Positions 16,452-40,210 of a DNA stretch of 64,000 nt are shown here, in pieces. The number at the start of each line of letters is the position of its first letter. Positions within the stretch are counted from its first letter, which is position 1. The stretch lies in the sequence record OM386664.1. One strand, given 5' to 3'. This stretch comes from Escherichia phage vB_EcoM_ESCO50. The notes under the pieces were generated by a model. The model had not been told where the DNA came from. It ran no database searches and was given only the letters and a program-made list of their open reading frames with translations. The translations under genes and the position numbers were made by a program.

Positions 16452-16943
16452 TTAGTTATGTCTTGCAAACTCACCATGAAGTTCTATTCGCTTTTTAATT
16501 ACAGCTTCTTTTGCTTCTTCTACCGTTTTAAATCTTCCACAAAAGTATTCTTTATAGTAAAGCATGACTCTTGCTTTGTAAAGACCTGTTTGTTTACAAA
16601 AACTTACACCCTTCACACCAGTTTTATTATTCTTGTGTATACCCCTATTTCGCTGATTTTGTGACTTTGTGCTAAGTCTTAAATTCTCCAACTTATTATT
16701 AGCTTTATCAAGGTCTATGTGGTCTACCTCATATCCACTTGGTATCTCACCTCCAGACATAATCCATGCAATATTATGTGCATAGTACCTCTTCTTATTT
16801 ATCTGGACTTGGATATAACCCTTCTTAGACCTTGTGCCAGCCACATTACCAGCAATAGCGGTACTGCAAAGGGTTACTCTCCAAATTAATAAACCTGTAT
16901 CTGGTTCATATATTAGGTATTTTTCAAAATAACCCTTATTCAT
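16452..16943 (-). CDS. HNH homing endonuclease with C-terminal AP2-like DNA-binding domain
   Basis: HNH motif EVDHIDLDKANNKLENLRL; AP2-like TGVKGVSF...YKARV; paralog of 39707-40210. Confidence 0.75.
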   Translation of the reverse strand: MNKGYFEKYLIYEPDTGLLIWRVTLCSTAIAGNVAGTRSKKGYIQVQINKKRYYAHNIAWIMSGGEIPSGYEVDHIDLDKANNKLENLRLSTKSQNQRNRGIHKNNKTGVKGVSFCKQTGLYKARVMLYYKEYFCGRFKTVEEAKEAVIKKRIELHGEFARHN

Positions 16944-16951
16944 ACTGTTAC

Positions 16952-17857
16952 CTAATCAAGGTTTGCTACAGTAACTTTACCATAATGTGTTAAGCCACGG
17001 TCTTTAGCTTCCCCTAAAGAGTTTGTAGTGTAGATATGGTCAATGCCATTGTCAAGAAGGTTTTCAACATCTTTAGAGAAGATACCATGTGTTACATAAA
17101 GTTCCACACGTTTTGCACCTGCTTCACGAAGATGTTTCGCTGCTTCTATGAAGGTTCGACCACCATCACAAATATCATCAAGAATCATGACAGTTTTATC
17201 TGTCAAATCAACATCATCAAGGATTCGCATACCAGTTATTTCACCAGTCTTAAGGTTGCGTACTTTAGACATTGTGATATATGGTTTATCCACCTCTTTA
17301 GCAGTCTCTGCAATCTTCTTAGAAGCACCTGCATCTGGGGCTACTAAGTAATCAATCAGAGGGTCATTTGCATAGTGGACTGCAATCTCCTTTTGAGGAA
17401 TACTTTGGAAGCAGTTGAAAAGGTTATCTGGAACGTAACTATGAGGGTCAACTGCACAGACTGCATCAAAACCCATTGCATTAACCTGTTGTGCAAACAC
17501 TTTCAAAGCTGCTGCATCACCTTTAAACATGTGACGGTCGTAACGTGCATTTGGCAAATAGTAAAAGATAGCAGTCTTCATAGCAAACTTATGAGGTACT
17601 AAATCATCAATTGCTTCTTTAGCAAGTGCCACAGCAAACAATGTGTCCTTGTCATAGCCTTTTACAATAATAACCACATTGTTGATGGATGATGCTGCAT
17701 AAGCAGTAAAATCAACAAGCTCTTGTGAAAAGTGTCCACCAATCTCACCAGAAGGGAACTGGATGATGTTAAACTCTTCTTCATGAGACCCTTTTGTCGG
17801 TGAATGAATTATAACACGAATCGATGTCTTCATAGTTTTCCCTCTCTTTATTCCCAA
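16952..17857 (-). CDS. Ribose-phosphate pyrophosphokinase (Prs)-family enzyme (candidate Adps of a NARP1-type pathway)
   Basis: PRPP-binding loop ILDDICDGGRTF, NARYDR motif; 301 aa. Confidence 0.75.
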   Translation of the reverse strand: MGIKRGKTMKTSIRVIIHSPTKGSHEEEFNIIQFPSGEIGGHFSQELVDFTAYAASSINNVVIIVKGYDKDTLFAVALAKEAIDDLVPHKFAMKTAIFYYLPNARYDRHMFKGDAAALKVFAQQVNAMGFDAVCAVDPHSYVPDNLFNCFQSIPQKEIAVHYANDPLIDYLVAPDAGASKKIAETAKEVDKPYITMSKVRNLKTGEITGMRILDDVDLTDKTVMILDDICDGGRTFIEAAKHLREAGAKRVELYVTHGIFSKDVENLLDNGIDHIYTTNSLGEAKDRGLTHYGKVTVANLD

Positions 17858-18255
17858 ATAACCTTTCTACGCTTTATCTGGATAATGTTCTTTTTACAAT
17901 ATTCGATAGCTTCATCTATTGACCCAAAACTTTCCTTCTCCACAAAGAAGCGAACTTCACCATCTTGTATCTTTTGTTCTTCGGCTGTTGGCTCTTCAAG
18001 TATTTTACTTGATACTTCTCTGTTAATCTGCATTACATACTCGAAAGAGTTCTTCTTGTACCCAACTATTTTAATGTAACCCCTCTGGCGAAGACGATTG
18101 AACCGAGTTGACTTGTTTGTCTTGGATACATCTGGAAATTCCTTGTCATGGATACTACGTATCTGTGAGCAAGTAAATGTTTTATCATAACCAAACTCAT
18201 TATACAGGACTTTTAACAGTTCAATCATAACATCACTCCCAAATAACTTTTGCAT
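17848..18255 (-). CDS. Paralog-family protein A1 (ends ...RRKVIWE); start set at MQKLFGS by analogy with A2
   Basis: Shares N-terminal LLKVLY..FG.DKTF and C-terminal EAIE(H/Y)CKK..I..K..K(V/I)(I/V)WE with three neighbours; track ORF extends to 18300. Confidence 0.5.
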   Translation of the reverse strand: MQKLFGSDVMIELLKVLYNEFGYDKTFTCSQIRSIHDKEFPDVSKTNKSTRFNRLRQRGYIKIVGYKKNSFEYVMQINREVSSKILEEPTAEEQKIQDGEVRFFVEKESFGSIDEAIEYCKKNIIQIKRRKVIWE

Positions 18256-18697
18256 GTTTAACTTTAATAAGATGCTCTTTGCAGTGCTCAATAGCTTCAT
18301 CTAGTGTTTTAAACATAACATCCGCGATAAAGTATCTTACGTCAGGTTGTACATCAACATCTTTAACCTCAGATAAGTTTGATTTTTGTGAACTCCCCAA
18401 CTCTTCACGCGTGTTATCTAGCATCCTTGACAGTTGTATGTGCTTCTCCATAAAGGCTCGATTTAATTGATTAATACTTAGTCTACCTTTGCTTTTTACC
18501 TGCCCTACAGTCAGCAGTACACCAGACTGTCTTAACATTGTTAGATACCCACGGGTATTACTGATTGACTGGCCTCGTATAAAAAGGCTATTCTCTCTTA
18601 ATGCGTCAATTGCTTCGTTAGAGTCAAAAGTGTTTTCTGTCCCGAAGGTTTTGTATAAAATCTCTATTACGTGCTTCTGTAAATTGCAAAAAATCAT
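18233..18697 (-). CDS. Paralog-family protein B1 (154 aa)
   Basis: Conserved C-terminal ...DEAIEHCKEHLIKVKHAKVIWE; 23-nt overlap with A1. Confidence 0.55.
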   Translation of the reverse strand: MIFCNLQKHVIEILYKTFGTENTFDSNEAIDALRENSLFIRGQSISNTRGYLTMLRQSGVLLTVGQVKSKGRLSINQLNRAFMEKHIQLSRMLDNTREELGSSQKSNLSEVKDVDVQPDVRYFIADVMFKTLDEAIEHCKEHLIKVKHAKVIWE

Positions 18698-18718
18698 AGT
18701 GTATTCCTAATCAAATGT

Positions 18719-19141
18719 TTAAACTTCTTCCCAAACAATACGCTTTCTTTTTGTTTGGATAACCGTTCTCTTACAATGCTCAACTGCTGCCTCCATACTG
18801 GTAAAGTGTATGTCACCTATGAAGTATCCTACTTCACCTACACTAACCTCTTCATCCTTTTGTTGATGGCCATTACAATTTAGAAGCACATTTTTAGCTT
18901 TGCTTTCATTGATTCTCATAAGATACTCATTATTAAATCCTGTCGCTCCAACAACACTAATGTACCCACTTTTACGTAATCTGTGAGACCAATTAGCTTT
19001 ATCCCTGATTGAAGCATGTGGTAGATATTTATTAAAAACCTTAGTTAGTTGTGAGCCAGAAAATGTTTTATCATAGCCAAAATTTATATACAGAACCTTC
19101 AGAAGCTCAAACATGTTATTACTCCCAAATAATTTTTGCAC
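18719..19141 (-). CDS. Paralog-family protein A2 (140 aa)
   Basis: MQKLFGS N-terminus; conserved C-terminal motif. Confidence 0.55.
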   Translation of the reverse strand: MQKLFGSNNMFELLKVLYINFGYDKTFSGSQLTKVFNKYLPHASIRDKANWSHRLRKSGYISVVGATGFNNEYLMRINESKAKNVLLNCNGHQQKDEEVSVGEVGYFIGDIHFTSMEAAVEHCKRTVIQTKRKRIVWEEV

Positions 19142-19574
19142 GTTTTACTTTGATAATATACTTTTTGCAGTGTTCAACAGCATCTTGGAGTGTATCAAAC
19201 ATCAACTCACCAATAAAGAATTTTATGTCTGGAGACACACCTACACCACCACTTAAGTCTTTTTGCTGCTCTTCACGTTGGTTTCGTGGCTCTTTAAGTA
19301 AATAGTCTAGCTGAATGTGCTTCTCAATAAAACCTCTATTTAATTGGTTGATGAGCATCCTCCCTTGTTGCTTAATCTGTCCTACCACGATGAGCACACC
19401 CCACTTTCTCATCTGAGTCAAGTAGTACCTGATGTTTGCTATTGGCTGTTTTTTGATGTAATCACTTCCTTCTTGTAGGGCTTCAATAGCTTCATTTGAG
19501 TCAAATGTGTTATCTGTCCCAAACTTATTGTATAGAATCTCAATAATTCTTTTTTGGAAGCTGCAAAAAATCAT
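19119..19574 (-). CDS. Paralog-family protein B2 (151 aa)
   Basis: MIFCSFQK N-terminus like B1; 23-nt overlap with A2. Confidence 0.55.
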   Translation of the reverse strand: MIFCSFQKRIIEILYNKFGTDNTFDSNEAIEALQEGSDYIKKQPIANIRYYLTQMRKWGVLIVVGQIKQQGRMLINQLNRGFIEKHIQLDYLLKEPRNQREEQQKDLSGGVGVSPDIKFFIGELMFDTLQDAVEHCKKYIIKVKRAKIIWE

Positions 19575-19583
19575 AATTTTCTC

Positions 19584-19862
19584 TCAATCAAAAGTTACGT
19601 TTGTTACTGCCATTGCAGATTTGCATTTTACAGGGTCTACAACGTGATAAAGTACACTACAGTTACCTGTGCTGTCTGGTACAGGCTTTACCCATTGCTG
19701 CTTTATAGTTGGTTCTCCTAAGTCTTTGTAAGAGCCGTCTGTAAAATTGTTTACCATCTCAAGTGCAATTGGTTCTGGGACATGACCACGTATCATGTAC
19801 ATTTCACAACCATTACCACCATCGCTGACTAGTGGTAAAATCTCCCACTTTTCTTTAGCCAT
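19584..19862 (-). CDS. Hypothetical Cys-containing protein (92 aa)
   Basis: ORF. Confidence 0.45.
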   Translation of the reverse strand: MAKEKWEILPLVSDGGNGCEMYMIRGHVPEPIALEMVNNFTDGSYKDLGEPTIKQQWVKPVPDSTGNCSVLYHVVDPVKCKSAMAVTNVTFD

Positions 19863-20370
19863 TGTAAGTCGCCCTATAAACTGTCTCGAACTTCAACAGG
19901 AGAGATATTGCCAAATCTGTATAGTTGTTGTCAAGCACATCTGGCATATTATTTTTGATATATTTCTCTTGCTCTTCATAGGTCATCTTAGGAGTGCTTA
20001 GAAGGTTATCTCCTTGCTTCTGGTTATCAAGTTTAGTCTGGATAAACCAGTTTGCACAGTGATGCTCACCACCCTTTGTAACAGGTTTGTGGTGGCCTAA
20101 TGTGAAGGATTGACTACCTGTGTATCTGCAAAGTTTATTGAGTACTGTAATGGTGTTCTTCACAACAAAACATTCATACAGGTTGTCTATGGTGTAGTGT
20201 GGGTAGTAGCGGAATAGTGCTCTTTCACGAGTGCTATCACGATTCCAGAGAATCATGTGATTAGAGTTTGAAGGGTCATATTGGTGGGAGTCAATGAACT
20301 CTTGGCGTTCCTCAAAGCTGAGTCTTAACACTGACATTGCAGCAGAACGTTTCAGGTTTAACAGGTACAT
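19855..20370 (-). CDS. Possible HNH-like nuclease (171 aa)
   Basis: GHHKPVTKGGEHHCANWFIQTKLDNQKQ resembles an HNH core; weak. Confidence 0.35.
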   Translation of the reverse strand: MYLLNLKRSAAMSVLRLSFEERQEFIDSHQYDPSNSNHMILWNRDSTRERALFRYYPHYTIDNLYECFVVKNTITVLNKLCRYTGSQSFTLGHHKPVTKGGEHHCANWFIQTKLDNQKQGDNLLSTPKMTYEEQEKYIKNNMPDVLDNNYTDLAISLLLKFETVYRATYNG

Positions 20371-20382
20371 ATTATCTCCAAA

Positions 20383-20408
20383 ATAAAAAGGGAACCTTTA
20401 CAGTTCCC
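20383..20408 (-). terminator. Hairpin AGGGAAC...GTTCCCT followed by U-run on minus transcript
   Basis: Inverted repeat plus A-run on plus strand. Confidence 0.45.
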
Positions 20409-20421
20409 TTATAGTATTTGT

Positions 20422-20742
20422 TTACTGAGCTACTTTCAAGATGCTTGTGAACGAGATTTCACTCTCATCCATAAACTCTTTTGCTTCTCCAGTAACTTTT
20501 ACAAAGTTATCTAGGCAGATAATCTTCTTATCTTTCTTGCTGTAGGTTAGCTTAACCTTTTCAATATCTTTCTTAGAGCTTTCCTCTTCATTAAAGAGCT
20601 TTACAGCTTCTTTGAATGGGAGGTATGAGCCATCATCATCGCTAATAAAACCTGTACCACAATAGTAGAAGTTATATTCTTTAGCCATAAACTGGCACAG
20701 TACGAAAATCTGTAATTTGCGAGTGTTATAAACTTTACCCAT
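20422..20742 (-). CDS. Hypothetical protein (106 aa)
   Basis: ORF. Confidence 0.5.
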   Translation of the reverse strand: MGKVYNTRKLQIFVLCQFMAKEYNFYYCGTGFISDDDGSYLPFKEAVKLFNEEESSKKDIEKVKLTYSKKDKKIICLDNFVKVTGEAKEFMDESEISFTSILKVAQ

Positions 20743-20744
20743 GA

Positions 20745-21002
20745 TTATTTAGCCTTCTTATTACGTTTATGGTTACGAGCTTTCTTAGCTGCTCGTTTAA
20801 TAGCTGCTGCACCAGACGGACGGTGGGCTTGTTTCTTACCACCTTTATCACGGCCTACATAGATACTTTTCATAACCTCATTAGCCAGCTTCTCCTCCAT
20901 CTTAAAGTTCTGCATAAGATGAGTCACATCAACACCAGTGAGCATACCTAATGAAGCTAGTGCTGCTTTTACTTTTGATTTAAAACTATTCCAGAGTCCC
21001 AT
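20745..21002 (-). CDS. Hypothetical protein (85 aa) with strongly basic C-terminus
   Basis: ORF; C-terminal KRAAKKARNHKRNKKAK. Confidence 0.5.
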   Translation of the reverse strand: MGLWNSFKSKVKAALASLGMLTGVDVTHLMQNFKMEEKLANEVMKSIYVGRDKGGKKQAHRPSGAAAIKRAAKKARNHKRNKKAK

Positions 21003-21006
21003 TTCA

Positions 21007-21041
<35 letters not shown>

Positions 21042-21147
21042 CTTTTCACAAATGTTTTAAGTTCTCCTTCAGTGACACCAATGGTTAAGTTTGTTCTGTA
21101 GAACATTGTAAAGTGGTCTTTACCGATAACCTACTTTACAACGAGAT

Positions 21148-21633
21148 TTACTCTGCTCTCCACTGGCAATCACCTTGCCATCCATACTCTTTTCTCCAGA
21201 GGTTTTGGTTATCAGAACCACGATATGGTTTAGCTGTTGGTTTAGATAAATCATACTTGCCATCAATCACCACGTCAATGTATTTCATCACATCAAGGTG
21301 AATTTTTTCGTGTAGTTGAAAACCTGTCCAAAGCCATATAGACTTCTCTGGATAAACAGTTTTAATACGTTTACATATATTGGTAACCTCTTGAATATTT
21401 CTATCATCCAGAGGTTCTCCACCAAGTATTGACAAACCACTGACAGCATTATCACCCATTAGTTGGATGATTCCGTAGAGGTTTGCATAAGTAAACTCTT
21501 TACCAGCATTAAACTTCCAAGACTCCCTGTTAAAGCAGCCTTCGCAGTGATGCTTACAACCAGCTACGAAGAGGCTTACACGAACCCCTTCACCATTAGC
21601 TGTATCAAATGGTCTAATATCCATGTAATTCAT
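21148..21633 (-). CDS. nrdG: Anaerobic ribonucleotide reductase activating protein (radical SAM)
   Basis: N-terminal Cys cluster CKHHCEGC; directly downstream of nrdD-like gene. Confidence 0.75.
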   Translation of the reverse strand: MNYMDIRPFDTANGEGVRVSLFVAGCKHHCEGCFNRESWKFNAGKEFTYANLYGIIQLMGDNAVSGLSILGGEPLDDRNIQEVTNICKRIKTVYPEKSIWLWTGFQLHEKIHLDVMKYIDVVIDGKYDLSKPTAKPYRGSDNQNLWRKEYGWQGDCQWRAE

Positions 21634-21697
21634 CTAGTTACCTCACCAATAAAAAGGTGATGTAAGCCTATCAAAACCCACACCACCTTGTCAAGTT

Positions 21698-23842
21698 TTA
21701 CATAGAAACCCTATCCTTAATTTCTGCCATCTTAGCGTCATTCATTCGAGACTGACCTTTAATTTTTGTGAATGACAAGTACCCGCACACCCTGTTAATC
21801 ACAGAGATATCGTGTGAATGACAAACCTCACATTCTTCAACATCAGCCTTTGGTCTGTTACCACAATGTTCACAGATTGCTAAGTCAAAGTTAAGGCCCT
21901 GATAGAAACCTTTCAACATCCCTCTGGTAATACAACTTTTAAGTGCTGATAAGTTTTCTGGATTAGCTACCCTTACATACTGGATTCTGCCGCCTCTACA
22001 GATATGGAAGAATGGCTCTTCTAAGTCCTGCTTCTCAAATGGTGTAATATCTGCTGCAACATTCATATGAAAACTATTTGTAAAGTATTCCTTATCAGAA
22101 ACACCTTTGATAACGCCAAACATATCTCTGAACTGTTTTAGCTGAGTTCCACAAAGTGATTCTGCTGGAGTGCCATATACCGCATACAAGAAGCCATCTT
22201 CGTTCTTAAACTCTTCAGTTTTCATGTTAATGTATGCCAGAACATCATATGCAAAACTACAGCTTCCAACTTCATGGAGTCGTTTACCCTCAGCAAGAAC
22301 AGATAGCTCATCAAGCGCAGTAACCCCAAAAGAGGCTGTGAAAGATTTCATGATATCCCAACCAACCTTATCAGTAGGCTTCTTAGTCCCTTTGTACAGA
22401 CCACCTTGTGTAAATGCAAGAGGGTTAGAACTTGCTGGCATATTAGCAATCATTTCGTAACGTTTCTTGTGGAAGCTGCGAATCATCTCTAGGTACTTAT
22501 CAAGCTCTTTCCAGAAATCTAAACCATTCTCTTTAGAATACTGGTAAATCATTGGTAAGTTCAAAGATACAGCACCAATGTTAGCACGACCAACGTAGAA
22601 CTCTTCCCCATTCTCGTTAAAATATGGAGATAAGAAGGCTCTGCAACCCATCGGGGAAATTACCTTGCCAGAACGCTCAAAAGCCTCTGCTACAGCACCA
22701 TGACCAGATACACTTAAGAAATCTGGATACATTGCTTTAGAGCAACACTCGATGGCTTTACTGTACAGGTGTCCTTGACAGATATTCTCATCGTGTCTCT
22801 TCTGGTCATAAATATAAACCAGTTTAGGAAATACAACAGGCTTCTTACTCTTACCTTGTCCATTCATACGAACATCTAGGAGGGTACTTGCAATCATGTA
22901 TTGCAGTCGGTTATCTTCATTAGACATATCTGAGTCAAGTAACCCGAATGTCAAAGTTGTGAATGCAAAATCCCCACGGCTACAAGGTACAGTGTTTAGT
23001 TTCATTTCAAGTGACTGGAAACCTTGAGTCAGTTCAATCTGTAGCTGCTCCATGACATAATTGTGGTAATGTTCTTTAGGAATACCATAAGATGCTGCTT
23101 TCTCAGCATGATAGCGTAGAGACTTCTTAGCATACGGCACAAGTACCTTATCAATCTCTGCTAAAGTAAAACCACCAAATTGCTGTGCAGTTGCTGAAAG
23201 AACTACATCACCAATAACCTGTAAGGCTGACAGTACAGACTTCGGTTCACAGTATTCAATGCCAGACATTTCAAAGCCACCTTTCAGGACTTTACCAATG
23301 TCAAACAGACAACAGTTGATACCACCAAAAATTAGGTCTCTTAAATCATGGATATAGATAAACCCTTTTTCAATGGCTTCAAGTTCCTCTGGTGTTAAAT
23401 GGTACTGTTTAAAGATTTCTTTAGTCAGATAACCACGAATAATTGAGCCTTTTGTAGAAATTAAACTGCTGTCAAAGTTAGCATTCTCTCTGTCACCTAA
23501 GAAGAGTGTATCTTTGGTCTTCTGGTAAAGTTCATCCCAATTTTGAGCAACTTCTTTACGGTAATTTCTATATGTTGAGTAAGACTCATAAATCTCGTGG
23601 TTGACTTCTGCCAAAGCACCCTCAACAATACTGTGAATATCATTTACTGAAATGAGTAAATTATTCTGCTTAGTGGATTTTACCAGAACCCTCATAAATG
23701 CTGACTCAAGAGCTTGGGTAACATCTGGTGGAAGCTCTTTATAACCAACTCTGTTAGCTGACTTTGTGACTGCTGTTAAAACTTTTTTGATATCAGGTTC
23801 TTCGAGTGAGCCATTCTTTTTAATAATCTGTACTTTGTTCAT
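21698..23842 (-). CDS. nrdD: Anaerobic ribonucleoside-triphosphate reductase (class III)
   Basis: 714 aa; C-terminal glycyl-radical motif RVCGYL and Zn site CEHCG...CEVC. Confidence 0.85.
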   Translation of the reverse strand: MNKVQIIKKNGSLEEPDIKKVLTAVTKSANRVGYKELPPDVTQALESAFMRVLVKSTKQNNLLISVNDIHSIVEGALAEVNHEIYESYSTYRNYRKEVAQNWDELYQKTKDTLFLGDRENANFDSSLISTKGSIIRGYLTKEIFKQYHLTPEELEAIEKGFIYIHDLRDLIFGGINCCLFDIGKVLKGGFEMSGIEYCEPKSVLSALQVIGDVVLSATAQQFGGFTLAEIDKVLVPYAKKSLRYHAEKAASYGIPKEHYHNYVMEQLQIELTQGFQSLEMKLNTVPCSRGDFAFTTLTFGLLDSDMSNEDNRLQYMIASTLLDVRMNGQGKSKKPVVFPKLVYIYDQKRHDENICQGHLYSKAIECCSKAMYPDFLSVSGHGAVAEAFERSGKVISPMGCRAFLSPYFNENGEEFYVGRANIGAVSLNLPMIYQYSKENGLDFWKELDKYLEMIRSFHKKRYEMIANMPASSNPLAFTQGGLYKGTKKPTDKVGWDIMKSFTASFGVTALDELSVLAEGKRLHEVGSCSFAYDVLAYINMKTEEFKNEDGFLYAVYGTPAESLCGTQLKQFRDMFGVIKGVSDKEYFTNSFHMNVAADITPFEKQDLEEPFFHICRGGRIQYVRVANPENLSALKSCITRGMLKGFYQGLNFDLAICEHCGNRPKADVEECEVCHSHDISVINRVCGYLSFTKIKGQSRMNDAKMAEIKDRVSM

Positions 23843-23861
23843 TATTGCCCCTTTACATTCT

Positions 23862-23890
23862 AAAAAGGTCTCCGAAGAGACCCTTTCATT
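23862..23890 (-). terminator. Hairpin GGUCUC-UUCG-GAGACC with flanking U/A runs upstream of nrdD
   Basis: Inverted repeat with tetraloop. Confidence 0.5.
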
Positions 23891-29631: not shown

Positions 29632-30129
29632 TCAAGCACAATTTGCTTTCATTACCTTGTGGATTCTTTTTTCAGCATCTTCATAAGTTTCTTTAGTAAT
29701 AAACTTAATTGCTGCAATGTTGGCATTGTAGAAGAGTCTGAGCTTAGAGTCAATCCTTTTTGTCATTACATCGAATTTATGTTGAAGGTTTGCTTCACCA
29801 TAGACTAGACCGCCTTTTGTGTAGTAGGTCTGAATAATGTAAAAGTCAAAAAATTCTTTCCCAAAGCTCTCAATATCTTTTTTAATATACTCAGAAGAAG
29901 TCTCGTAAGTCAGCCAATCACTTTCCTTAGTGACTACCTTCTTCCGAGTCTTCCCAGCAACTTTTCTTTTGGTCACACTGTTAAGCTGTTTCTTTCCTAT
30001 ATAATATTGTCCAGTCTTCTTACAGTGTACTAAATAGACAAAGCCAAAATGTTTAGTGGGGTCAACTTCCCCACATAAAGATACCCAATGACCATAGGTG
30101 GGGCAATTGCCAAATCCTTTAATCTTCAT
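29632..30129 (-). CDS. GIY-YIG-type endonuclease-like protein
   Basis: GFVYLV...GQYYIGKK motif. Confidence 0.5.
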   Translation of the reverse strand: MKIKGFGNCPTYGHWVSLCGEVDPTKHFGFVYLVHCKKTGQYYIGKKQLNSVTKRKVAGKTRKKVVTKESDWLTYETSSEYIKKDIESFGKEFFDFYIIQTYYTKGGLVYGEANLQHKFDVMTKRIDSKLRLFYNANIAAIKFITKETYEDAEKRIHKVMKANCA

Positions 30130-31159
30130 TCATACACGGCTCCCAATTATATTTCTTGAAAGAGAAATCGTCTTTCTTATTTCTTTCCTGATAAGCTAAG
30201 AAAAAGTGTTGCTGCATTAACTCTAAGGGTGTTCTGGTAATTGTTTGACCATCCCACGAGACATAAGTGTACGACTCTTTCTTAGCATAAAGCTCATAAA
30301 TTGCATCAAGACACTCTTTGTAAGTGGTTTTACCTTCAAGGGCTTTCATTACAGTAGCCTTACCAACGCCCTTTAAACCAAAATAATTATCCGCGTTATC
30401 ACCAGCCACAGCTTGATAACAAAGGAATTTGAAACCTACACCAACTGTCTTCTTAGCTTTTGGTGTTGATTTTATTGGGCAATCCCAAATTTCACCAACG
30501 TTGTTATCAGCAATGAAAATCAAAGGTGACTTTTCATAGGTCATATCAATGCAGTAAGTCCCTTCAGCTTGGCGAAGGTCTTTATCAATACTCATTAAGG
30601 CAGCCTTTTTACCCATCTTTTCAGCTTTAGCAATAACGATAGAGTCAGCTTCAAATCCATCAAGAATTAGTTTGAACTCTGGTCTTGACAGAAGATATTC
30701 ACGACAAGCAACTAAGTGTGTTGGTGTGACAGCATTTTTGCGGTTACCTTGATATTGGTGCTCAAGACCTTTAATGTCTTTATGCTTATGCACACCTTTC
30801 TCTGTTAAATAGCCTACCCAAGTTCTCTCTTTACCAACAACCTTAAGCCATTCCTGAAGCACCTGTTGAGTAGCCATGATAGCTTCTTTTTCACTCTTAG
30901 CTTCTTTCCAAGTCTGTCTTTCCCATTCATCTTCATCAAATGTCAGGCCAAGCTCTTCCACAAGGATTCTCTGGTCTGCTAACCATCTTGCAGCATCTTT
31001 CGCATTATCAAATGGCTCAGACTCTTCTGCTGTGAGTTTATTGACGTATTTATATTTTGCTTTCTCAACTACACAAGCACCTTTATAGGCAATACTGTCA
31101 GAGTCAATAAAGACGTGTGTAACTGAATCGGGAAGTTTTGTTAATGTGTACTTCTCCAT
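30119..31159 (-). CDS. 5'-3' exonuclease / flap endonuclease (FEN family)
   Basis: H3TH motif AGDNADNYFGLKGVGKAT; N-terminal acidic cluster VFIDSDSIAYKGA. Confidence 0.75.
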   Translation of the reverse strand: MEKYTLTKLPDSVTHVFIDSDSIAYKGACVVEKAKYKYVNKLTAEESEPFDNAKDAARWLADQRILVEELGLTFDEDEWERQTWKEAKSEKEAIMATQQVLQEWLKVVGKERTWVGYLTEKGVHKHKDIKGLEHQYQGNRKNAVTPTHLVACREYLLSRPEFKLILDGFEADSIVIAKAEKMGKKAALMSIDKDLRQAEGTYCIDMTYEKSPLIFIADNNVGEIWDCPIKSTPKAKKTVGVGFKFLCYQAVAGDNADNYFGLKGVGKATVMKALEGKTTYKECLDAIYELYAKKESYTYVSWDGQTITRTPLELMQQHFFLAYQERNKKDDFSFKKYNWEPCMNED

Positions 31160-32142: not shown

Positions 32143-32149
32143 ATACTAA

Positions 32150-32299: not shown

Positions 32300-32551
32300 G
32301 ATATTCTCCGATATACTTGATATTCAAACACGTTTTCTTTCATTATAAACAGCCAACTAATATTATGCTGAGGCAGCGAAATAATGACTGTAATCATGCT
32401 TTGGTGGAAATCCTCTTTTGCCTCAACTTCCCCATCGCATTTCATGAGGAGCATTCTATAGAACCTATCAAGCTTTGTCAAACACTCTTCCTGAAATTTA
32501 TTTAAACTTTTTTCTTCAAAGAAGGGTGTGAACCCCTCTCTTTTATAACTA

Positions 32552-34543
32552 TCACTCAGTTTCGAACGGGCAGTCATCTGCATCCTCACTTAATACAGGT
32601 GGAATCGTTGAGCTTTGACGCTGCTCTTCAGTATAGACTTCACCAGTATCACGGTCAAACACTTCATCCTCATAATGTGGCAAAGAGTCATCGTAATGGT
32701 CTTCAGCTTCACCAATGCCAAACTGTTGGCGAATATTTTCTGCTGCACCATCAATGTCAACTCCGCAACCAGATGCTTTGATAAGACGCCCTGTATCTGG
32801 ATTGTACCAAGTATGACCAGCAATACCCGTTGACTTACCATGACGACGACATTTAGTTAACTTGATTTTTGTCAAGTTTTTCTTAACAGGGTCTGGGTCA
32901 ACCTTGTTACGCATTAACAGAATGTTGTTCATAGAAATCTGGAAATACGCACCAGAACCTTTAATATCCTCTTCAGAGATATCCCCACCTTCAGAGTTAG
33001 CCTTCTGACCACCTGCACTCTTACGAACGTGACAGACGTTTACCTGTGCATACTGGTAGCGTTTGCAACGGCGCAATAGCTCAGACAAAACTTCCTCTTC
33101 ATCCGTATCTGAACGTGATAGAGCCAACGTAATAGGGTCAAGAATAATAATCTTACAATCTAAACTATTAACAAGATAGTCAACAAACTCCAGCAAGTTA
33201 TCTTGGTCAATTGCCCCTTGATGGTCTACGATGTGGATACGACGACCTTTAGATAGTTCTGCGTGTGCTTCCTTCAATTCATCCCAATCACGTTCGTCAT
33301 AAGGAATCTCAGAAATCTGCTTGCTCAGGTGGATTGCACAGAGCATCTCCATCAACTCTTCATAGGTATCTTCTACAGGAATTACACCAATGTTGTAATC
33401 GGTATCTTTCCAAGCAGTATAAATCATTTCACGAGTGTATGCAGATTTACCCACTGAAGATGGTGCTGCCAGAGTTGTAATCTCACCTAAACCATAACCA
33501 CCATAAGTCAGCCTGTTCAAATCTCCGAAAGACTCTGGGAAAGGAATCAATGGAATCTGACCACGATTCTTCATTGCCTCAAAACCATCTGCGAAGTTCT
33601 TGATACCAGCAGGACAGTAACGAGGTGCATTGTAGATACGCTGCTTAAACCCTTCCAGAACTGTATCTTTCTCTTTATAGAACTTTGTCCACCACTCGTT
33701 AAGGTCTTTTACACCCTCTGGATACTGGAATAAACGAACCTTCTCAATAGGTAGGATACCAGCAGCCTCTTTAGTGGCTTTAGCACCTGCTTCATCGTTA
33801 TCAAAGCACAGGTAAATTTCATCAAATGATGTAATGTACTGATAGTTATCTTTGATAGACTTAATGTTTGCACCTGATGGAACAGATACGTGACAGTAAT
33901 TCTTACGACGAGACTTATCCTTAATCGCCAAAGAAGTCATATAGATTGCTGTCGCACATTCCATCTCACCTTCCCAGATGAATAGACGGTTACCACCTTC
34001 TGGAGCAATCCATGAACCGAACATTGCCAGTTCACCTTTAATGTCTCCAACGCCACCAGAAAAGTCTTTTAACTTACCACGTAGGTGCTCTTTTGGATGG
34101 TCTTCTGGGTAACGGTGACGAACACGGTAGCCAACATGCTCTAGCTTGCCATCTTCATTACGTTTGTAAGTTGGATAGAAGTGCGCATCAATTTCACCGT
34201 CACTGTCAATGTCAACCTTGATACCTAAGCGTTCAAGGACTTTTGCAGGAATCTTCCTGTCCTTTAAGTCCATTGCTTCTAGGTTTTCTTTCACATCGTC
34301 TAAATCCATCCCACGGAAAGTACGGTTTTTATTGTCTGAACCAGTAGAATAAGTGCTCACGATTTGTCCTTTATCAAAATCCCACTCTGGGAAACCTTTG
34401 TTACAACTAAAGCAAGTCATCGAATAAGAATCATCGTCATGATGATAGATTGAACCAGCATCTGATGAACCACAACGTGGACATGCACAATGACCAATAA
34501 ACTGACCAGCCTCTTTCAATTTACGACCTTTAGACATTAGCAC
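32552..34543 (-). CDS. Bifunctional DNA primase-helicase (T7 gp4-like)
   Basis: N-terminal zinc ribbon CACPRCG...CFSCNKG, TOPRIM LCFDNDEAG, Walker A GKSAYTRE. Confidence 0.85.
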   Translation of the reverse strand: MLMSKGRKLKEAGQFIGHCACPRCGSSDAGSIYHHDDDSYSMTCFSCNKGFPEWDFDKGQIVSTYSTGSDNKNRTFRGMDLDDVKENLEAMDLKDRKIPAKVLERLGIKVDIDSDGEIDAHFYPTYKRNEDGKLEHVGYRVRHRYPEDHPKEHLRGKLKDFSGGVGDIKGELAMFGSWIAPEGGNRLFIWEGEMECATAIYMTSLAIKDKSRRKNYCHVSVPSGANIKSIKDNYQYITSFDEIYLCFDNDEAGAKATKEAAGILPIEKVRLFQYPEGVKDLNEWWTKFYKEKDTVLEGFKQRIYNAPRYCPAGIKNFADGFEAMKNRGQIPLIPFPESFGDLNRLTYGGYGLGEITTLAAPSSVGKSAYTREMIYTAWKDTDYNIGVIPVEDTYEELMEMLCAIHLSKQISEIPYDERDWDELKEAHAELSKGRRIHIVDHQGAIDQDNLLEFVDYLVNSLDCKIIILDPITLALSRSDTDEEEVLSELLRRCKRYQYAQVNVCHVRKSAGGQKANSEGGDISEEDIKGSGAYFQISMNNILLMRNKVDPDPVKKNLTKIKLTKCRRHGKSTGIAGHTWYNPDTGRLIKASGCGVDIDGAAENIRQQFGIGEAEDHYDDSLPHYEDEVFDRDTGEVYTEEQRQSSTIPPVLSEDADDCPFETE

Positions 34544-34730
34544 CTCTTCGTTGTAGTTCTGCTTTTAAGCCATTTTCAATCTTGTTCAGTTCATGAATTT
34601 CATCTGCAATCTCTTTCCTTCGTGATTCAACTCTCTTAAGACGTTCAATCATTACCTCATTGGAAAGAGATGAGAGTTCCACTAAACGGTGGTCAATAAC
34701 TTTAAAATTGTCTTTCACTCCCATCTTCAT
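34530..34730 (-). CDS. Hypothetical coiled-coil protein (66 aa)
   Basis: ORF. Confidence 0.45.
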   Translation of the reverse strand: MKMGVKDNFKVIDHRLVELSSLSNEVMIERLKRVESRRKEIADEIHELNKIENGLKAELQRRGANV

Positions 34731-34738
34731 TCTCTCTT

Positions 34739-35482
34739 TTAAATCTTCAGGATAGCTCTTAGCTTGCCCTCAAGGTCTTCAATAGTACCATTATTATGAA
34801 TAATGTCACGCTCATATTTTGTAGAAATGCCATTTTCTGAAACATGTGATGAAACTTTGTCCACATTGTCTCTTTTTACTTCAATAGTTTGGTGTGCAAA
34901 TCTGCTCAACCACTCAGCTTCAGAGTCAAATCTTAAATCACTGATTAAAACAACGCCTTCTTGATTTCTAAGTGAGCAAACGTCAAAGAAATTTACCATT
35001 CGTTTTTCAAGGTCTTTAGCCCAGAACTTGTCACCCATAACTTTACGGATAACTTCAGTGCCCCAAATCTGTTGAATTTGTCTTGATGAGAATTTATACT
35101 TTTTACTAAATCCCAGACGTGTTAATAGAGTCGGTTTAGCAACCTTCTTAAGCTCCATGATTAAGCGTCCTGTCAATTCCGACACAAGTTTAAAGTCCGT
35201 GTGATAACGTTCACCTTTGAAGGTGAACTCCGTAGCTTCGGTAACTTTTAACATTAGTTCAGGATATGATAAGTCAAAAACCTGTGGAGTCTCTTTAGTT
35301 TCACCATACAGGTCATTCCAAGTCAAGTCAAATATCTTTGATGCAGATAGTTTAAGGTTGTCTGCAAAGGCCATTACTTCAACATTGTAGCCATACTCAT
35401 CCTCTAAGATGTTCTTCACAATAGAACATGAGGTGTCTTTTCCAGAACGTGCCTTTCCAGTAAATGCAATGATTTTACTCAT
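34739..35482 (-). CDS. P-loop nucleotide kinase, likely dNMP kinase
   Basis: N-terminal P-loop IIAFTGKARSGKDT, reminiscent of T4 gp1. Confidence 0.55.
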   Translation of the reverse strand: MSKIIAFTGKARSGKDTSCSIVKNILEDEYGYNVEVMAFADNLKLSASKIFDLTWNDLYGETKETPQVFDLSYPELMLKVTEATEFTFKGERYHTDFKLVSELTGRLIMELKKVAKPTLLTRLGFSKKYKFSSRQIQQIWGTEVIRKVMGDKFWAKDLEKRMVNFFDVCSLRNQEGVVLISDLRFDSEAEWLSRFAHQTIEVKRDNVDKVSSHVSENGISTKYERDIIHNNGTIEDLEGKLRAILKI

Positions 35483-35543
35483 TTTATCTCCCTTAATTAC
35501 TAAAAAGCCCCCAACTAAGGAGGCTTGTAAAATTTATAAAGAC

Positions 35544-36344
35544 TTAGTGCAGTTGCTCAGCAGACTCTTTTTCAGCCATAGCTGAGAGTTGCTTCACAAA
35601 ATCATCACCGAAGTTAATGCGAAGTTTCTCTTCAATGATTGAAGCACCAATGTTCACCAAAACATCATTGATTGCTTGCATACTAACACCACCAGTCATC
35701 TCCTCAATGAACTCCATACTCACACCCATCACCTGTGAAAGTTGGATTAGTGCAACGATATTCATCATTGTAGAGATAGCTGGAATCATCAGTGCAACTT
35801 TCACCTGAAGTGGCTCTATATCAGCTACAGAGTCATTCTCAACAGCTTCTTCCAAAGACTCTTTGGTTTGCTGGATAATCTCTTTGATTCGTGGGTTTAA
35901 TTCCTCTACGCCCCAATCAAGCTTTTCATATCGTGACAGCTTTTCTTCCATACGCTTCTCAAGAACAGCCATAACAGCACTCGTTGATGAGATAAGCGTA
36001 TCAATAATGAAATCAGTGTCCTTAGTCAGCAGTAGTTCCTTATCTTCGTCTGACATCCTGATATAGTCATTCTTTTGCATTTCATAAAAAATGAACTCAG
36101 CAAGTGCATCAACACCAACCGCAATAGATGCCAGAGCAAGTGTAGTGTCTGTCAACATCATGTTAACCTGTTCTGCAAAAGCACCGTTATCAGACTTGTC
36201 TTTAGGCAGATTGTAGCTTGCAGGCATAAACTGTTCTGTGTAGTTGTTACCACGAAGAATCATAGCCATGCTTTCTACGGCATTGATTAAGAACGCTTCG
36301 TCAATACCCTTTTCTTCAAGCATCTTTTCTACATCGATATTCAT
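35544..36344 (-). CDS. Hypothetical protein (266 aa)
   Basis: ORF. Confidence 0.5.
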   Translation of the reverse strand: MNIDVEKMLEEKGIDEAFLINAVESMAMILRGNNYTEQFMPASYNLPKDKSDNGAFAEQVNMMLTDTTLALASIAVGVDALAEFIFYEMQKNDYIRMSDEDKELLLTKDTDFIIDTLISSTSAVMAVLEKRMEEKLSRYEKLDWGVEELNPRIKEIIQQTKESLEEAVENDSVADIEPLQVKVALMIPAISTMMNIVALIQLSQVMGVSMEFIEEMTGGVSMQAINDVLVNIGASIIEEKLRINFGDDFVKQLSAMAEKESAEQLH

Positions 36345-36345
36345 A

Positions 36346-36768
36346 TTATTTCTCTCTCAGTTGGTTAAGTTTCTTTCTAGAACATTTTAAGTTTTCTGAT
36401 GAAGAAAAGTCAAGTGTCTTTTCAGAACGTGGATAATAGTGCCTATCCCAAGAAGTTTCAACATCATTAATCAGTGACGCTAGATTACACAGGTCTGTAC
36501 CACTTTGCAACCTCTTTTTAAGAGAATCTAGTAAAGCAACTGTGTCTTTAGCTTTACGTCTCGCTGTAGCAACATCTTTCATATGCTCAAATACAGAGCA
36601 TTTTAAGTCATCTTCATAGTTTTCAGATAACTCTATTTCATGTTGTATATCAACCATTCTCCTGTGATGGTGAGCATATTCCCGTTGAGCAGCAATGTCA
36701 AGTTCTTCCAACTTCTGCAAAGCTCTAACAAAGTCAGCTATGTCTGGGTGAACAAACATTTTCTGCAT
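36346..36768 (-). CDS. Hypothetical protein (140 aa)
   Basis: ORF. Confidence 0.5.
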   Translation of the reverse strand: MQKMFVHPDIADFVRALQKLEELDIAAQREYAHHHRRMVDIQHEIELSENYEDDLKCSVFEHMKDVATARRKAKDTVALLDSLKKRLQSGTDLCNLASLINDVETSWDRHYYPRSEKTLDFSSSENLKCSRKKLNQLREK

Positions 36769-37025
36769 GTAAGCCTCTTTTAAGTAACTATTAAGTTTTA
36801 ATCTTTTATCTTAACGTATTCTATACGTTATACTTTAAAGCTTTTTAAAAACTATTAAATAGTCTTTTAAGAGTTTTAAAGTATCTGTATAGTTAAACTG
36901 TTAAGTAACCTTTTAAGTAAAAACCCACTTCGCAAAGATTAACACCTTGTCAAGTACATTGTCAACTTGCTTTTTATAATTTTTTACAGTAATGTATGAG
37001 ATTAATGATTTAAGAGGGAGTAAAA
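36769..37025. promoter_or_regulatory. AT-rich divergent intergenic region with TTAAGTAA(C) direct repeats and TTGTCAA elements between minus-strand genes and the DNA polymerase
   Basis: Strand switch here; repeats and promoter-like elements read from sequence. Confidence 0.45.
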
Positions 37026-39725
37026 ATGGAAAACGTAGATTTTAAAAACTTACATTTAGTTGGCGATACAGAAACTGATGGTTTGCTCCTTGAGTTCACT
37101 AAAGTGCACGTAATGGCTTTCGCAGACTATAAATCTGACGATGAAGAGCCACCTGTATGGGTCTTTACAGATGAGCCTATCCTCGGTCACAAGTACACTA
37201 AGTACCTTAAGGGTGGTTTACGTGAAGGTGTTGAGTTTGCGTTAAAGGCAAAACGTCTTTGCATCCATAATGGTCTCGGTTATGACTGGTGGGTTTTCAA
37301 TCACATTGCACCGGATTTATGGAACTTTGATAATCCAAAGTGTAAGCCGTGGAGTAATTTCTTTCAGGATTCTCTTATCCAGTCTCGTGTTCAGTGGATG
37401 GATAGGCCAACTCCAAAGGGTTATAAAGGTGCTCATGGTTTGGCTGCATGGGGTGCTCGTGTTGGTGTTCGTAAGCCAGAGATTGAGCATTGGGGTGTGT
37501 GGAATGCAGAAATCTTCACTCGTGTTGTAGATGATATCCGTATTAACGCCAAAACTAAACGGGCACTTGATAACGAGTATCTCAAGCTTAAGAAGTGTGG
37601 CATAGACACTTATGAAACCTACATGCGAGCTAAAGAAACATCTTTCTGGATGAGTCAACAAGCTATCAATGGTTGGAAAGCTGATAAAGAGCTTATGGAG
37701 TTCCATGTGAAGGAACTTGACAAGTTGACTAATGAGCTTGCTTCAGAGGTTGAACCACATCTTCCTCCAACTATTAAGACCAAAGGTAAAGTCACTGGAG
37801 AAGAGTTTGCAAAAGCTTGGAATGAGTATGTTGAAACATTTGGTCATGCAGATGGACTGAAAAGAATTACCAAGTACCCTAAGACAAAGTATCGTCAGCA
37901 GGTACGTAATGGTGAGATGCAGACATACGAAATCAAACCATTTGGTAAGCCAACTACAAAGATTTTTAACATTGAAAAGAGAAATTGCTATACACCAACC
38001 AACTCTGTAACTGGTGAAGAGTACAAGGAAGGTTTTGTAGCAATGAAGGATGCTCGTGCAATTTGCAATGAGTTGAATGCAAAGATTGGTAAGAAGTGCA
38101 AAGACTGGAAGCCAGTAAAAACAGTCAAAACTGTGAAGTATTATAACAGCCACGTTGTTAACCACTTTGAACTTGAGTCAAGTCGCTACACAGGTTTGAT
38201 TGATGCACCATATACACCAATTGAGTTTGAAGTTTCTCGTATGACTCAGGTAGCAGTTGTTAAAGACTACTTGAAATCAGTTGGTTGGATTCCAGATGAC
38301 TGGAACTACAAGAAAGACTCAGACGGTCGCCCTGTCAAAGTTTGTCGTTTCAAAGACAATAAAAAGATGATTACAAAACATCCTAAGTGGCAGGAGATGG
38401 TTGAACGGTGTGGTTTGAGTTATGTTGAACATGAAGGTGTACAGTACATTGAGCATAACTGGTCTGTGAAGAAATACACAGATTTGCTTGAACCTTGCTT
38501 AATCCGTACTTCACCAAAACTTACTGAATCATCTTATGACACGATTGAAGGTGAGCTTGGACAGAAGATTGCGAAATACTACACTTTGATGCACAGACGC
38601 AGAACTATTGAGAACTCAAAGGATGATGAAAAAGGTTGGTTAAACCAGATTCGTCCCGATGGTCGCCTTAGTGCTGGTGCAATGGTGTTTGGTACTTCAA
38701 CTGGACGTATGACACAATATGGTATTGTAAACGTACCATCTGGTGCTGCTGTCTATGGAGCACCTATGAGGGAGGTTTGGACTTGTGAAGATGGTACAGA
38801 TATCATTTCCGTAGACCAAAACTCAGCCCAGCTAGTTCTCCTTTGTAACTTTATGGGTGATGAAGACTTCACTAAAGCGGTAACTGAGGGTAAAGAGTCA
38901 GTAGAGTTCACTAAGCAAGATGATGGTAGATACTACTGTAAGCATCTTGACAAGTATCTTAACCCAGAAACTGACAAGTATCTGCGTTATGATGCTGAAA
39001 ATGACCTCTATGAAGTCTACACAGGGACTGATGCGCATACACTGAACAGTATTTACTTTGGTCTGAACAAAGAAGAAGATATTGTTCGTTGTAGGGAGAC
39101 ACAGGATGAGGAGCTTCTTCACGAGATTACAAAAGGTCGTAAGAAGAGCAAAAATGGCATCTACGCCCTGTTATTTGGAGCCGGAGACGAGAAGTTTGCA
39201 AAAACTATCAAGGCATCATCTACGGAAGAAGGTGCATTGACTAAACAAACTTACTTTGTGCGTCTACCTAAGATTAAAAAGCTGCTTGATAGACTAGAGG
39301 AAGACTTCAAAGCAACTAAGAAAGCACTTGAAGAGGTTTTTGGAAAAACTTCTGCAATTGCGAAAGGTGGGTACATCAAAGTTGCTGGAGCGTGGTTATG
39401 GTGTAAATCTCCACATAAGTTATTGAATTACACACTTATGGGCAGTGAGGCGCAGGTGCAGAATGAGGGTATTAACTTGGCTAACAGAGAGTTAACAGAG
39501 CGTAAGCTTACAGTCCTAAATGGTAGGAAACCAGCTATTGGTGCTAGATGGGTCTGTAGTTACCACGACGAAGTTTCTTTAGAGGTTCCAACAAAAGATG
39601 TACCAGATGTTAAGGAGATTATTGATAGGATGTATGGTCAAGCATCAAAAAATCTTGGATTAAAAAGTAAGACGCTTGTTACAGGCACTGGTAAGGTAGG
39701 TAAGACATGGTACGCCGTACACTAA
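37026..39725 (+). CDS. DNA polymerase, family A, with 3'-5' exonuclease domain
   Basis: Exo I VGDTETDGL; motif A DQNSAQL; motif B KKSKNGIYALLFGAGDEKF (T7 gene 5-like); motif C YHDE. Confidence 0.9.
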   Translation: MENVDFKNLHLVGDTETDGLLLEFTKVHVMAFADYKSDDEEPPVWVFTDEPILGHKYTKYLKGGLREGVEFALKAKRLCIHNGLGYDWWVFNHIAPDLWNFDNPKCKPWSNFFQDSLIQSRVQWMDRPTPKGYKGAHGLAAWGARVGVRKPEIEHWGVWNAEIFTRVVDDIRINAKTKRALDNEYLKLKKCGIDTYETYMRAKETSFWMSQQAINGWKADKELMEFHVKELDKLTNELASEVEPHLPPTIKTKGKVTGEEFAKAWNEYVETFGHADGLKRITKYPKTKYRQQVRNGEMQTYEIKPFGKPTTKIFNIEKRNCYTPTNSVTGEEYKEGFVAMKDARAICNELNAKIGKKCKDWKPVKTVKTVKYYNSHVVNHFELESSRYTGLIDAPYTPIEFEVSRMTQVAVVKDYLKSVGWIPDDWNYKKDSDGRPVKVCRFKDNKKMITKHPKWQEMVERCGLSYVEHEGVQYIEHNWSVKKYTDLLEPCLIRTSPKLTESSYDTIEGELGQKIAKYYTLMHRRRTIENSKDDEKGWLNQIRPDGRLSAGAMVFGTSTGRMTQYGIVNVPSGAAVYGAPMREVWTCEDGTDIISVDQNSAQLVLLCNFMGDEDFTKAVTEGKESVEFTKQDDGRYYCKHLDKYLNPETDKYLRYDAENDLYEVYTGTDAHTLNSIYFGLNKEEDIVRCRETQDEELLHEITKGRKKSKNGIYALLFGAGDEKFAKTIKASSTEEGALTKQTYFVRLPKIKKLLDRLEEDFKATKKALEEVFGKTSAIAKGGYIKVAGAWLWCKSPHKLLNYTLMGSEAQVQNEGINLANRELTERKLTVLNGRKPAIGARWVCSYHDEVSLEVPTKDVPDVKEIIDRMYGQASKNLGLKSKTLVTGTGKVGKTWYAVH

Positions 39726-40210
39726 CACTTCAAGATTACAAGGACAATTTTATTTACGACCCCGACAAAGGGGTCTTCTACAACAAGTATGACAGGAATA
39801 GGCAAGCTAAAGCTGGTCAGGTTGCCGGAGGAAGTGATGCTTATGGTTACAGGGTACTTAAATTCAAAGGTGTTGTAATAAAAGTACATCACCTTGTTTG
39901 GTGGTTTGAGCATGGTTACAAACCTACTAAGATGATAGACCACATTGATGGTAATAGGAGCAATAACCACATTTCTAATCTTAGAGAGGCCGATAAATAT
40001 GGAAACGCTCAAAACAGAGTAAAGCAGACAACTAACAAATCAGGTTACAAGGGTGTATATTACTTTAAAGACTGCAATAAGTGGAGGGCAGCTATAACAT
40101 GCAGAGGTAAAAGGACATCACTTGGTTTATTTGACACACCTGAAGAAGCCCATAAAGCTTACTGTGAAGCTGCTATAAAACTCCACGGAGAGTTTGCAAA
40201 ACTAAGTTGA
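39707..40210 (+). CDS. HNH homing endonuclease with AP2-like domain; overlaps polymerase 3' end by 19 nt
   Basis: HNH motif MIDHIDGNRSNNHISNL; AP2-like GYKGVYYF; paralog of 16452-16943. Confidence 0.75.
   Translation: MVRRTLTLQDYKDNFIYDPDKGVFYNKYDRNRQAKAGQVAGGSDAYGYRVLKFKGVVIKVHHLVWWFEHGYKPTKMIDHIDGNRSNNHISNLREADKYGNAQNRVKQTTNKSGYKGVYYFKDCNKWRAAITCRGKRTSLGLFDTPEEAHKAYCEAAIKLHGEFAKLS

Follow-up and report, generated by a model that had tools for sequence, protein, structure and literature searches.

Which of the nuclease-like genes in the nucleotide-metabolism and replication region of Escherichia phage vB_EcoM_ESCO50 are mobile? The window, a 64,000-nucleotide (nt) stretch of this phage (sequence record OM386664.1), holds four open reading frames (ORFs) that an earlier note, made from the sequence alone, had singled out as homing-endonuclease-like: two paralogous HNH-AP2 genes, here called HNH1 (16452-16943, minus strand) and HNH2 (39707-40210, plus strand), a GIY-YIG-like gene (29632-30129, minus strand), and a possible HNH-like gene, here called ORF171 (19855-20370, minus strand). 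All four are listed at exactly these positions. Comparison with related genomes makes it likely that HNH1 and HNH2 are functional free-standing homing endonuclease genes (HEGs) that spread by intronless homing, while neither the GIY-YIG gene nor ORF171 is currently a homing element.

The 25-kb stretch around these genes matches 283 phage records, nearly all from Felix O1-like myoviruses of Escherichia, Salmonella, and Shigella, and the window itself belongs to a Felixounavirus, a Felix O1-like myovirus. The best match to the region is Escherichia phage ESCO49 (~97.6 to 97.7% identity over 25 to 26 kb), and this closest relative carries neither HNH1 nor HNH2. When the window was compared with ESCO49 over 27 kb, identity fell below 90% in only two blocks, one in nadV and one at the 3′ end of the DNA polymerase gene (pol), and each divergent block adjoins one HEG, on one side only. 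Wider comparisons drew on loci from public collections, which are phylogenetically related. For the prs/nadV site, 28 loci together with the window, ESCO49, and Felix O1 yielded 8 filled and 23 empty alleles; for pol, 36 further loci were used, comprising 34 IMG/VR loci and phages REP8 and humlepung.

HNH1 encodes a 163-amino-acid (aa) protein and HNH2 a 167-aa protein, both of the free-standing HNH_3-plus-AP2 type. The Pfam HNH_3 domain was found above its cut-off of 24.8 bits in HNH1 (3.7e-19, 68.5 bits) and in HNH2 (1.7e-12, 47.2 bits), and AP2 was found in HNH2 above its cut-off of 33.3 bits (2.5e-11, 44.1 bits). Both proteins match PHROG 99 “HNH endonuclease” over their full lengths (1.7e-67 for HNH1). 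The HNH motif of HNH2 aligns with that of I-HmuI (PDB 1u3e, E value of 4e-5), with DHIDGNRSNNHISNLR...NAQN opposite DHKDGNKDNNLSTNLR...NVEN, and the HNH1 motif DHIDLDKANNKLENLR...QNQRN aligns in turn with that of HNH2; the catalytic D-H...N...N residues are intact in both, the catalytic histidine being H74 in HNH1 and H79 in HNH2. The two proteins share 35% identity over 152 aa (E value of 7e-27), with the alignment running through the AP2 region; they are members of one family and not recent duplicates. Only these two of the 93 window ORFs encode HNH_3 proteins, and a search of the window for further HNH-AP2 paralogues found none besides them.

HNH1 lies, as the earlier note had said, between genes of the NAD+ pathway, adjoining prs (16952-17857) and nadV (14656-16437), both on the minus strand and named here as in the annotation of relatives. 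The site is occupied in 61 of 250 relatives (~24%); in the others, the alignment breaks into two pieces around the absent gene. Set against the 23 empty alleles, the 8 filled ones show that HNH1 takes the place of an intergenic stretch of ~30 nt, beginning at the third base of the prs stop codon and extending to the ribosome-binding site (RBS) of nadV. The prs stop codon is TAG in all filled alleles and TAA or TGA in empty ones, and across these 31 alleles three single-nucleotide polymorphisms at the start of nadV always accompany HNH1 (−1 G>T, codon 2 ACT>AGT, and codon 6 TAT>TAC). The flanks of HNH1 differ sharply. On the prs side, ESCO49 is 99 to 100% identical to the window right up to HNH1; on the nadV side, identity is 76% and 88% in the first two 100-nt bins and then 95 to 100%, and it is back at 100% ~500 nt into the gene. 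The nadV 5′ end and RBS (16258-16451, minus strand) therefore form a one-sided tract of ~180 nt that we take to be a co-conversion tract and the probable target region of HNH1.

The same gene has crossed between genera. In Moogle-like and phiSUSP1-like loci, which belong to other genera, the HNH1 protein is 90 to 91% identical to that of the window and the prs and nadV proteins are ~75% identical; the synonymous divergence (dS) of HNH1 in these loci is 0.32 to 0.40 versus 1.08 to 1.19 for nadV. These loci resemble the window only in the 100 nt adjoining HNH1 (94% identity versus 81% in HEG-less congeners). HNH1 is under purifying selection, with a ratio of nonsynonymous to synonymous divergence (dN/dS) of 0.10 to 0.16. 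Together, these data are consistent with the footprint expected of a working HEG with a short one-sided co-conversion tract, whose product would cut near the nadV start. As a separate observation, relatives can be sorted by prs protein identity into discrete classes (~95%, 82%, 78%, and 75%) while the adjacent nadV is 95 to 99% identical in several of them, so that the prs/nadV junction is a recombination boundary even in HEG-less genomes.

HNH2 begins within pol (37026-39725, plus strand), and the reported overlap of exactly 19 nt is correct. Its ATG is formed inside the pol codons ACA TGG; ESCO49 has AGC TGG at this position and therefore no HNH2 ATG. Copies with at least 90% aa identity occur in only 17 phage records (~7%), one of which, ESCO45, has an identical copy, versus ~256 records matching the pol 3′ region; the wider HNH2 family is present in more than 2,400 phage records. 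With a dN/dS of 0.04 to 0.08, HNH2 is also under purifying selection. Between the window and ESCO49 there is no mismatch from 38400 to ~38760, and identity then drops abruptly to 60 to 80% near 38780. The divergence covers the final ~930 nt of pol plus HNH2 (504 nt), and identity is perfect again from 40207, directly after the HNH2 stop codon. Thus, the divergent pol 3′ allele (38780-39706, plus strand; ~930 nt) runs up to HNH2 and flanks it on one side only, as expected if it were a co-conversion tract that travels with the gene.

Relatives support this linkage. The first 600 pol codons are 98 to 100% identical across the genus, and the last 299 split into allele classes; dS is 0.064 for the first 600 codons versus 2.04, a saturated value, for the 3′ tract between allele classes. 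The class found in the window is 98 to 100% identical among the window, Felix O1, humlepung, and three metagenomic contigs, and all six loci carry HNH2: neither the allele nor the gene occurs without the other. This class is only 78 to 79% identical to the one common to ESCO49-like phages and to the Moogle and phiSUSP1 genera, and because the latter spans three genera, the window class is the outlier and appears to be an imported allele. At least three other HNH-AP2 lineages, 40 to 52% identical to HNH2, lie downstream of pol in relatives, and some HNH-AP2 gene is present there in 20 of the 33 loci examined. The pol 3′ region of relatives is thus a mosaic of alleles, HEG lineages, and introns. 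Lastly, the final ~65 nt of HNH2 (~40142-40210; ...EEAHKAYCEAA(I/M)KLHGEFAKLS) are 98 to 100% identical across HEG lineages whose proteins are otherwise 40 to 50% identical, which suggests that one HEG may replace another by recombination within the 3′ end of the gene.

Where would the pol-linked endonucleases cut? The best candidate is a stretch of pol (39138-39206, plus strand) that encodes RKKSKNGIYA/LLFGAGDE, with the slash marking the junction 39167/39168. It aligns with TFIYG/FLYGAGDEK of T7 DNA polymerase, which we take to be polymerase motif B, in the O-helix. In seven relatives, pol is split at this one codon boundary and a group I intron lies there, as in L031 (2600-2883), L048 (4681-4964), and L036 (4743-5544), each insert falling at the equivalent of 39167/39168. 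REP8 and BPS17W1 have the intron without an ORF, and the five others have an insert of ~800 nt; the one long insert examined (L036-like) encodes an Endonuclease VII-type protein (Pfam PF02945, 1.1e-19). The Rfam search misses this long form, and a group I intron in the neighboring target gene is Rfam-supported only in L031 and L048. No Rfam intron was found in the window, where pol is one uninterrupted ORF.

Window-type and ESCO49-type motif B encode nearly the same peptide (A versus S once) and have 9 to 10 synonymous differences in 39 nt. The recoded version was found in nine loci, every one with a downstream HEG, and in 0 of 13 HEG-less loci (hypergeometric P value of ~0.004, with relatedness ignored), and the exons of intron-bearing alleles are near the unrecoded version. 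This is the pattern that collaborative homing, the partnership of a free-standing HEG with an ORF-less intron, predicts (PMC3984707, PMC10448857): the endonuclease would target the intron site, and its carriers would be shielded by the intron or by recoding. Two differences from that system should be noted. The window has no intron and has a synonymously recoded motif B instead, and some HEG lineages of relatives coexist with an unrecoded site. A tentative reading, which we regard as quite possible and somewhat short of an even chance, is that motif B is contested by several selfish elements and that the window exhibits a third escape, a synonymously recoded and imported pol 3′ allele hitchhiking with the endonuclease. 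If the enzymes do cut at motif B, this genus, with more than 250 sequenced coliphages and Salmonella phages that are easy to grow, would display next to one another the intermediate steps through which mobile introns have been proposed to arise.

Different results were obtained for the GIY-YIG gene. Its 165-aa product matches Pfam SegE_GIY-YIG (PF19835; 1.3e-27, 96.9 bits, cut-off of 25 bits), and the gene overlaps the 5′-3′ exonuclease gene (30119-31159, minus strand) by 11 nt, in agreement with its description as GIY-YIG-like and next to the exonuclease. G29, Y32, Y43, G45, E112, and N135 are invariant, and R62 is nearly so, among 15 orthologues that are 47 to 87% identical. The gene is covered over at least 80% of its length in 214 of 228 relatives. 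Its place is unchanged even in distant relatives, after the exonuclease gene and ahead of the MazG-like and nrd genes; its product is 50 to 59% identical there, with neighbors at 30 to 50%. Because it is near-universal, syntenic, and diverging at the rate of its neighbors, the gene behaves as a vertically inherited core nuclease gene. The GIY-YIG domain occupies residues 21 to 138 of 165 (homologues are 157 to 180 aa long), and since only ~27 residues follow it, there is no room for a DNA-binding domain of the Seg type; a domain scan found no second, DNA-binding domain, and a search against PDB sequences gave no meaningful match. The label “NAD synthetase” given to this protein (RefSeq, PHROG 447; Felix O1 NP_944980) is not supported by its domain content and is a misnomer.

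The mobile item at this spot is another gene. The exonuclease/GIY-YIG junction (30119-30129, minus strand) is an empty site in the window, and relatives that align there in two pieces annotate an HNH gene between the pieces. In Felix O1 this is ORF106, which carries HNH_3 and AP2 and lies between the exonuclease and GIY-YIG genes. Thus, Felix O1 and many relatives have a third HNH-AP2 gene of which the window has no copy.

ORF171 is likewise conserved. No Pfam family reached threshold in the window protein, with no Pfam HNH match; a weak PHROG match to HNH proteins was found (PHROG 2214, 2.4e-4), and 1 of 14 orthologues gave Pfam HNH at an E value of 0.0085. The family shares a segment, FTLGH(H/W/Y)xP...GG.....NW.I......N, in which P96, G100, G101, N107, and N116 are invariant in the family alignment; H93 does not vary among close orthologues and reaches at least 90% conservation across the wider alignment. 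In an AF2 model (mean pLDDT of 72.5), this segment is predicted to form a strand (89-93), a second strand (108-112), and a helix (113-121). The protein that the family profile matches most weakly has unambiguous Pfam HNH and HNH_5 domains, and two true family members have sub-threshold HNH matches. “HNH-like” is therefore a plausible description, and the cautious wording of the earlier note, a possible HNH-like ORF, was fair and should not be taken further. The family is small and confined to Ounavirinae-like phages (20 clusters in one database and 18 matches among 1.84 billion representatives). ORF171 is covered in one piece in ~33 of 40 evenly sampled records and, being found in most relatives, does not behave as a homing gene. 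A PDB match of the N-terminal helices (residues 11 to 56) to the staphylococcal protein A repeat (LSFEERQEFIDSHQYDPSNSNHMIL) was set aside as probably due to chance or composition, with E values per repeat of 1 to 60.

These results divide the proposed recombination hot spots in two. HNH1 and HNH2 mark recombination boundaries of the homing type, because they are patchy at fixed sites, their divergent tracts are bounded, and the pol 3′ region is mosaic. The GIY-YIG gene and ORF171, fixed and near-universal, do not mark such spots; they are vertically inherited nuclease or nuclease-like core genes, although they may be domesticated descendants of homing elements. The earlier note had held that conservation at the same position in all relatives, together with inactivated catalytic residues, would refute homing. 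For these two genes, the position is conserved in nearly all relatives and the catalytic residues are intact.

Intronless and collaborative homing are textbook processes in T4 and in T3/T7-like phages, and free-standing HEGs with co-conversion of their flanks are well established in T4 and other phages. When two Felix O1-like phages infect one cell, the enzyme would cut the allele that has no HEG near the insertion point, and repair off the HEG-carrying genome would bring in the HEG plus the sequence lying between it and the cut. The HNH1 product would cut at the very start of nadV, and the HNH2 product would cut within the last ~930 nt of pol, most probably at the motif B position of the group I intron of relatives. 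Substitutions at the cut sites would protect the window's own alleles. Activity of the enzymes, the cut positions, and this immunity are inferred from the sequence patterns described above.

Several observations weigh against this scheme. The AP2 match of HNH1 (5.4e-4, 20.6 bits) falls under the Pfam cut-off. The left edge of the divergent pol tract (~38750-38780) is common to nearly all HEG- or intron-bearing alleles, and a single old introgression followed by shuffling would fit that shared edge as well as repeated homing does. Since the sampled loci are related, the occupancy and linkage counts overstate independence. Eight loci (L043 to L045, L052 to L054, L056, and L057) combine another HNH-AP2 lineage with an unrecoded, intron-free motif B, so not every HNH-AP2 lineage at pol can target that site. 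Finally, no cleavage data for Felix O1-type endonucleases were found in the literature.

Ordinary homologous recombination might account for the patchiness and the divergent flanks if the HNH-AP2 genes were passive cargo, either morons or decaying ex-endonucleases. Felixounavirus genomes are mosaic elsewhere (the 78%, 82%, and 95% prs classes are independent of HEG presence), small-ORF modules downstream of pol have been gained and lost, and the left edge of the pol tract is common to several allele classes. However, both HEGs are under purifying selection and have intact catalytic residues, the only two strongly divergent blocks in 27 kb against ESCO49 end exactly at these two genes, and HNH1 has passed between genera into the homologous site with less than 100 nt of flank; we therefore regard passive carriage as distinctly unlikely. 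Alternatively, the HNH-AP2 proteins could serve the phage, as AP2-type regulators of the nadV and pol operons or as nucleases directed against competing phages. Purifying selection would fit such a role too, and cutting the polymerase gene of a competitor would benefit the carrier, but the gain from excluding competitors is not really distinct from homing, and most relatives, including the closest, manage without both genes. A regulatory role might have operated through the 4-bp GC stem and T-run that HNH1 replaces between prs and nadV, the loss of which could alter read-through; that hairpin is weak (z of −1.5), and we rejected it as a terminator. Of the explanations considered, a role in the service of the phage strikes us as very improbable.

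It could also be argued that the GIY-YIG gene and ORF171 are themselves HEGs whose sweep through the subfamily has gone to fixation and left no empty sites. The SegE-family domain with all its catalytic residues, the H-N-N motif retained by ORF171, and the fact that the exonuclease/GIY-YIG junction itself takes another HEG all point that way. Fixed HEGs without a purpose are expected to decay, though, and both genes are conserved; the synteny and neighbor-like divergence of the GIY-YIG gene hold down to 50% identity, the ~27 residues after its domain leave no space for a Seg-type DNA-binding domain, and the confinement of the ORF171 family to Ounavirinae-like phages (18 matches in all) likewise argues against a sweep, which we consider unlikely. 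Intronless homing of HNH1 and HNH2, with the other two genes as resident core genes, is the reading that we prefer.

What was found is a known kind of element correctly recognized, since homing endonucleases have been reported in Felix O1 since 2010. Whichard et al. 2010 (PMC3185647) counted six HNH endonuclease copies and no introns in Felix O1; the genes were listed there, and their targets, flanks, and occupancy were not analyzed. Homing endonucleases are also listed as a module in comparative work published later on the genus. Two of the annotated HNH endonucleases of Felix O1, ORF128 (NP_945017) and ORF95 (NP_944955), occupy the same positions as HNH1 and HNH2 and are their orthologues (90% and 95% identity, respectively), and ORF95 likewise overlaps the pol 3′ end by 19 nt. 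The HNH-AP2 family, with HNH_3, AP2, and an I-HmuI-like motif, is described from phages, cyanobacteria, and protists in work cited by Barth et al. 2023 (PMC10448857), where a preference for sites by polymerase and nucleotide-metabolism genes, at boundaries of genetic exchange, is already described. HNH1 and HNH2 share with the known members an N-terminal HNH domain, a C-terminal AP2 region, a free-standing gene, and a place beside polymerase or nucleotide-metabolism genes. In the literature searched, we found no biochemically characterized HNH-AP2 member from Felix O1-like phages.

Among known systems, the intronless homing of T4 Seg and Mob endonucleases (PMC2988022, PMC2790892) is the closest in form: a patchy gene between conserved genes, with one-sided divergent tracts reaching to the presumed cut. 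The enzyme family and the phage group differ, and cleavage and marker exclusion, which have been demonstrated in T4, are putative here. The window GIY-YIG protein shares the catalytic domain and all signature residues with T4 SegE-type endonucleases (PF19835); unlike them, it is a 165-aa protein with no room for a DNA-binding domain, and its gene is fixed and syntenic rather than patchy. For this genus, the literature searched contained no description of the exact bounds of the co-conversion tracts, of an imported pol 3′ allele linked to HNH2, or of the contest between intron and HEG at motif B.

Felix O1-like phages are in wide use for typing and biocontrol of Salmonella and E. coli, often in cocktails where coinfection is likely. 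If the homing endonucleases are active, they would bias which nadV and, more importantly, which pol alleles survive in such mixtures. They also explain the mosaicism of these two spots in comparative genomics, and neither the pol 3′ end nor the prs-nadV junction serves well as a phylogenetic marker in the genus. The annotation “DNA polymerase (x2)” in relatives reflects intron-split pol genes.

Several minor observations were made around pol. In relatives, the annotated pol start lies 10 codons farther upstream (MRLMILEGVK-MENVD...; window 36996-37025). In the window, the sixth of these ten codons is a stop codon (MRLMI*), so the usable start there is the ATG at 37026, which is perhaps the usable start in the whole genus. 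A TTGACA at the HNH2 stop codon was considered as part of a sigma-70 promoter and rejected, as ~23 nt separate it from TATACT and a promoter scan made no call. Downstream, the block of small ORFs that separates the HEG from the ligase gene is highly variable among relatives, and ESCO49 has a 421-nt insertion after window position 40447 with two small ORFs inside.

In the surrounding region, the minus strand carries nadV, prs, nrdG/D, nrdB/A, the MazG-like gene, and genes for the 5′-3′ exonuclease, a primase-helicase, and a dNMP kinase, in that order, and the plus strand carries the DNA polymerase and ligase genes. The ORF at 20422-20742 (minus strand) was evaluated as a fifth nuclease, since ESCO49, wV8, and others annotate it as “HNH endonuclease” or “putative HNH homing endonuclease”; it belongs to DUF7390/PHROG 4462, gave no HNH signal at all, and was dismissed. 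Near the HNH1 locus, four tandem ORFs of 140 to 154 aa (17848-19574, minus strand) all match phrog_29478, whose function is unassigned in PHROG. The 3′-most copy, the only one that our query covered, is missing from most other relatives. The array as a whole lies between prs and the ORF at 19584-19862 and is shared with ESCO49 and not with Felix O1.

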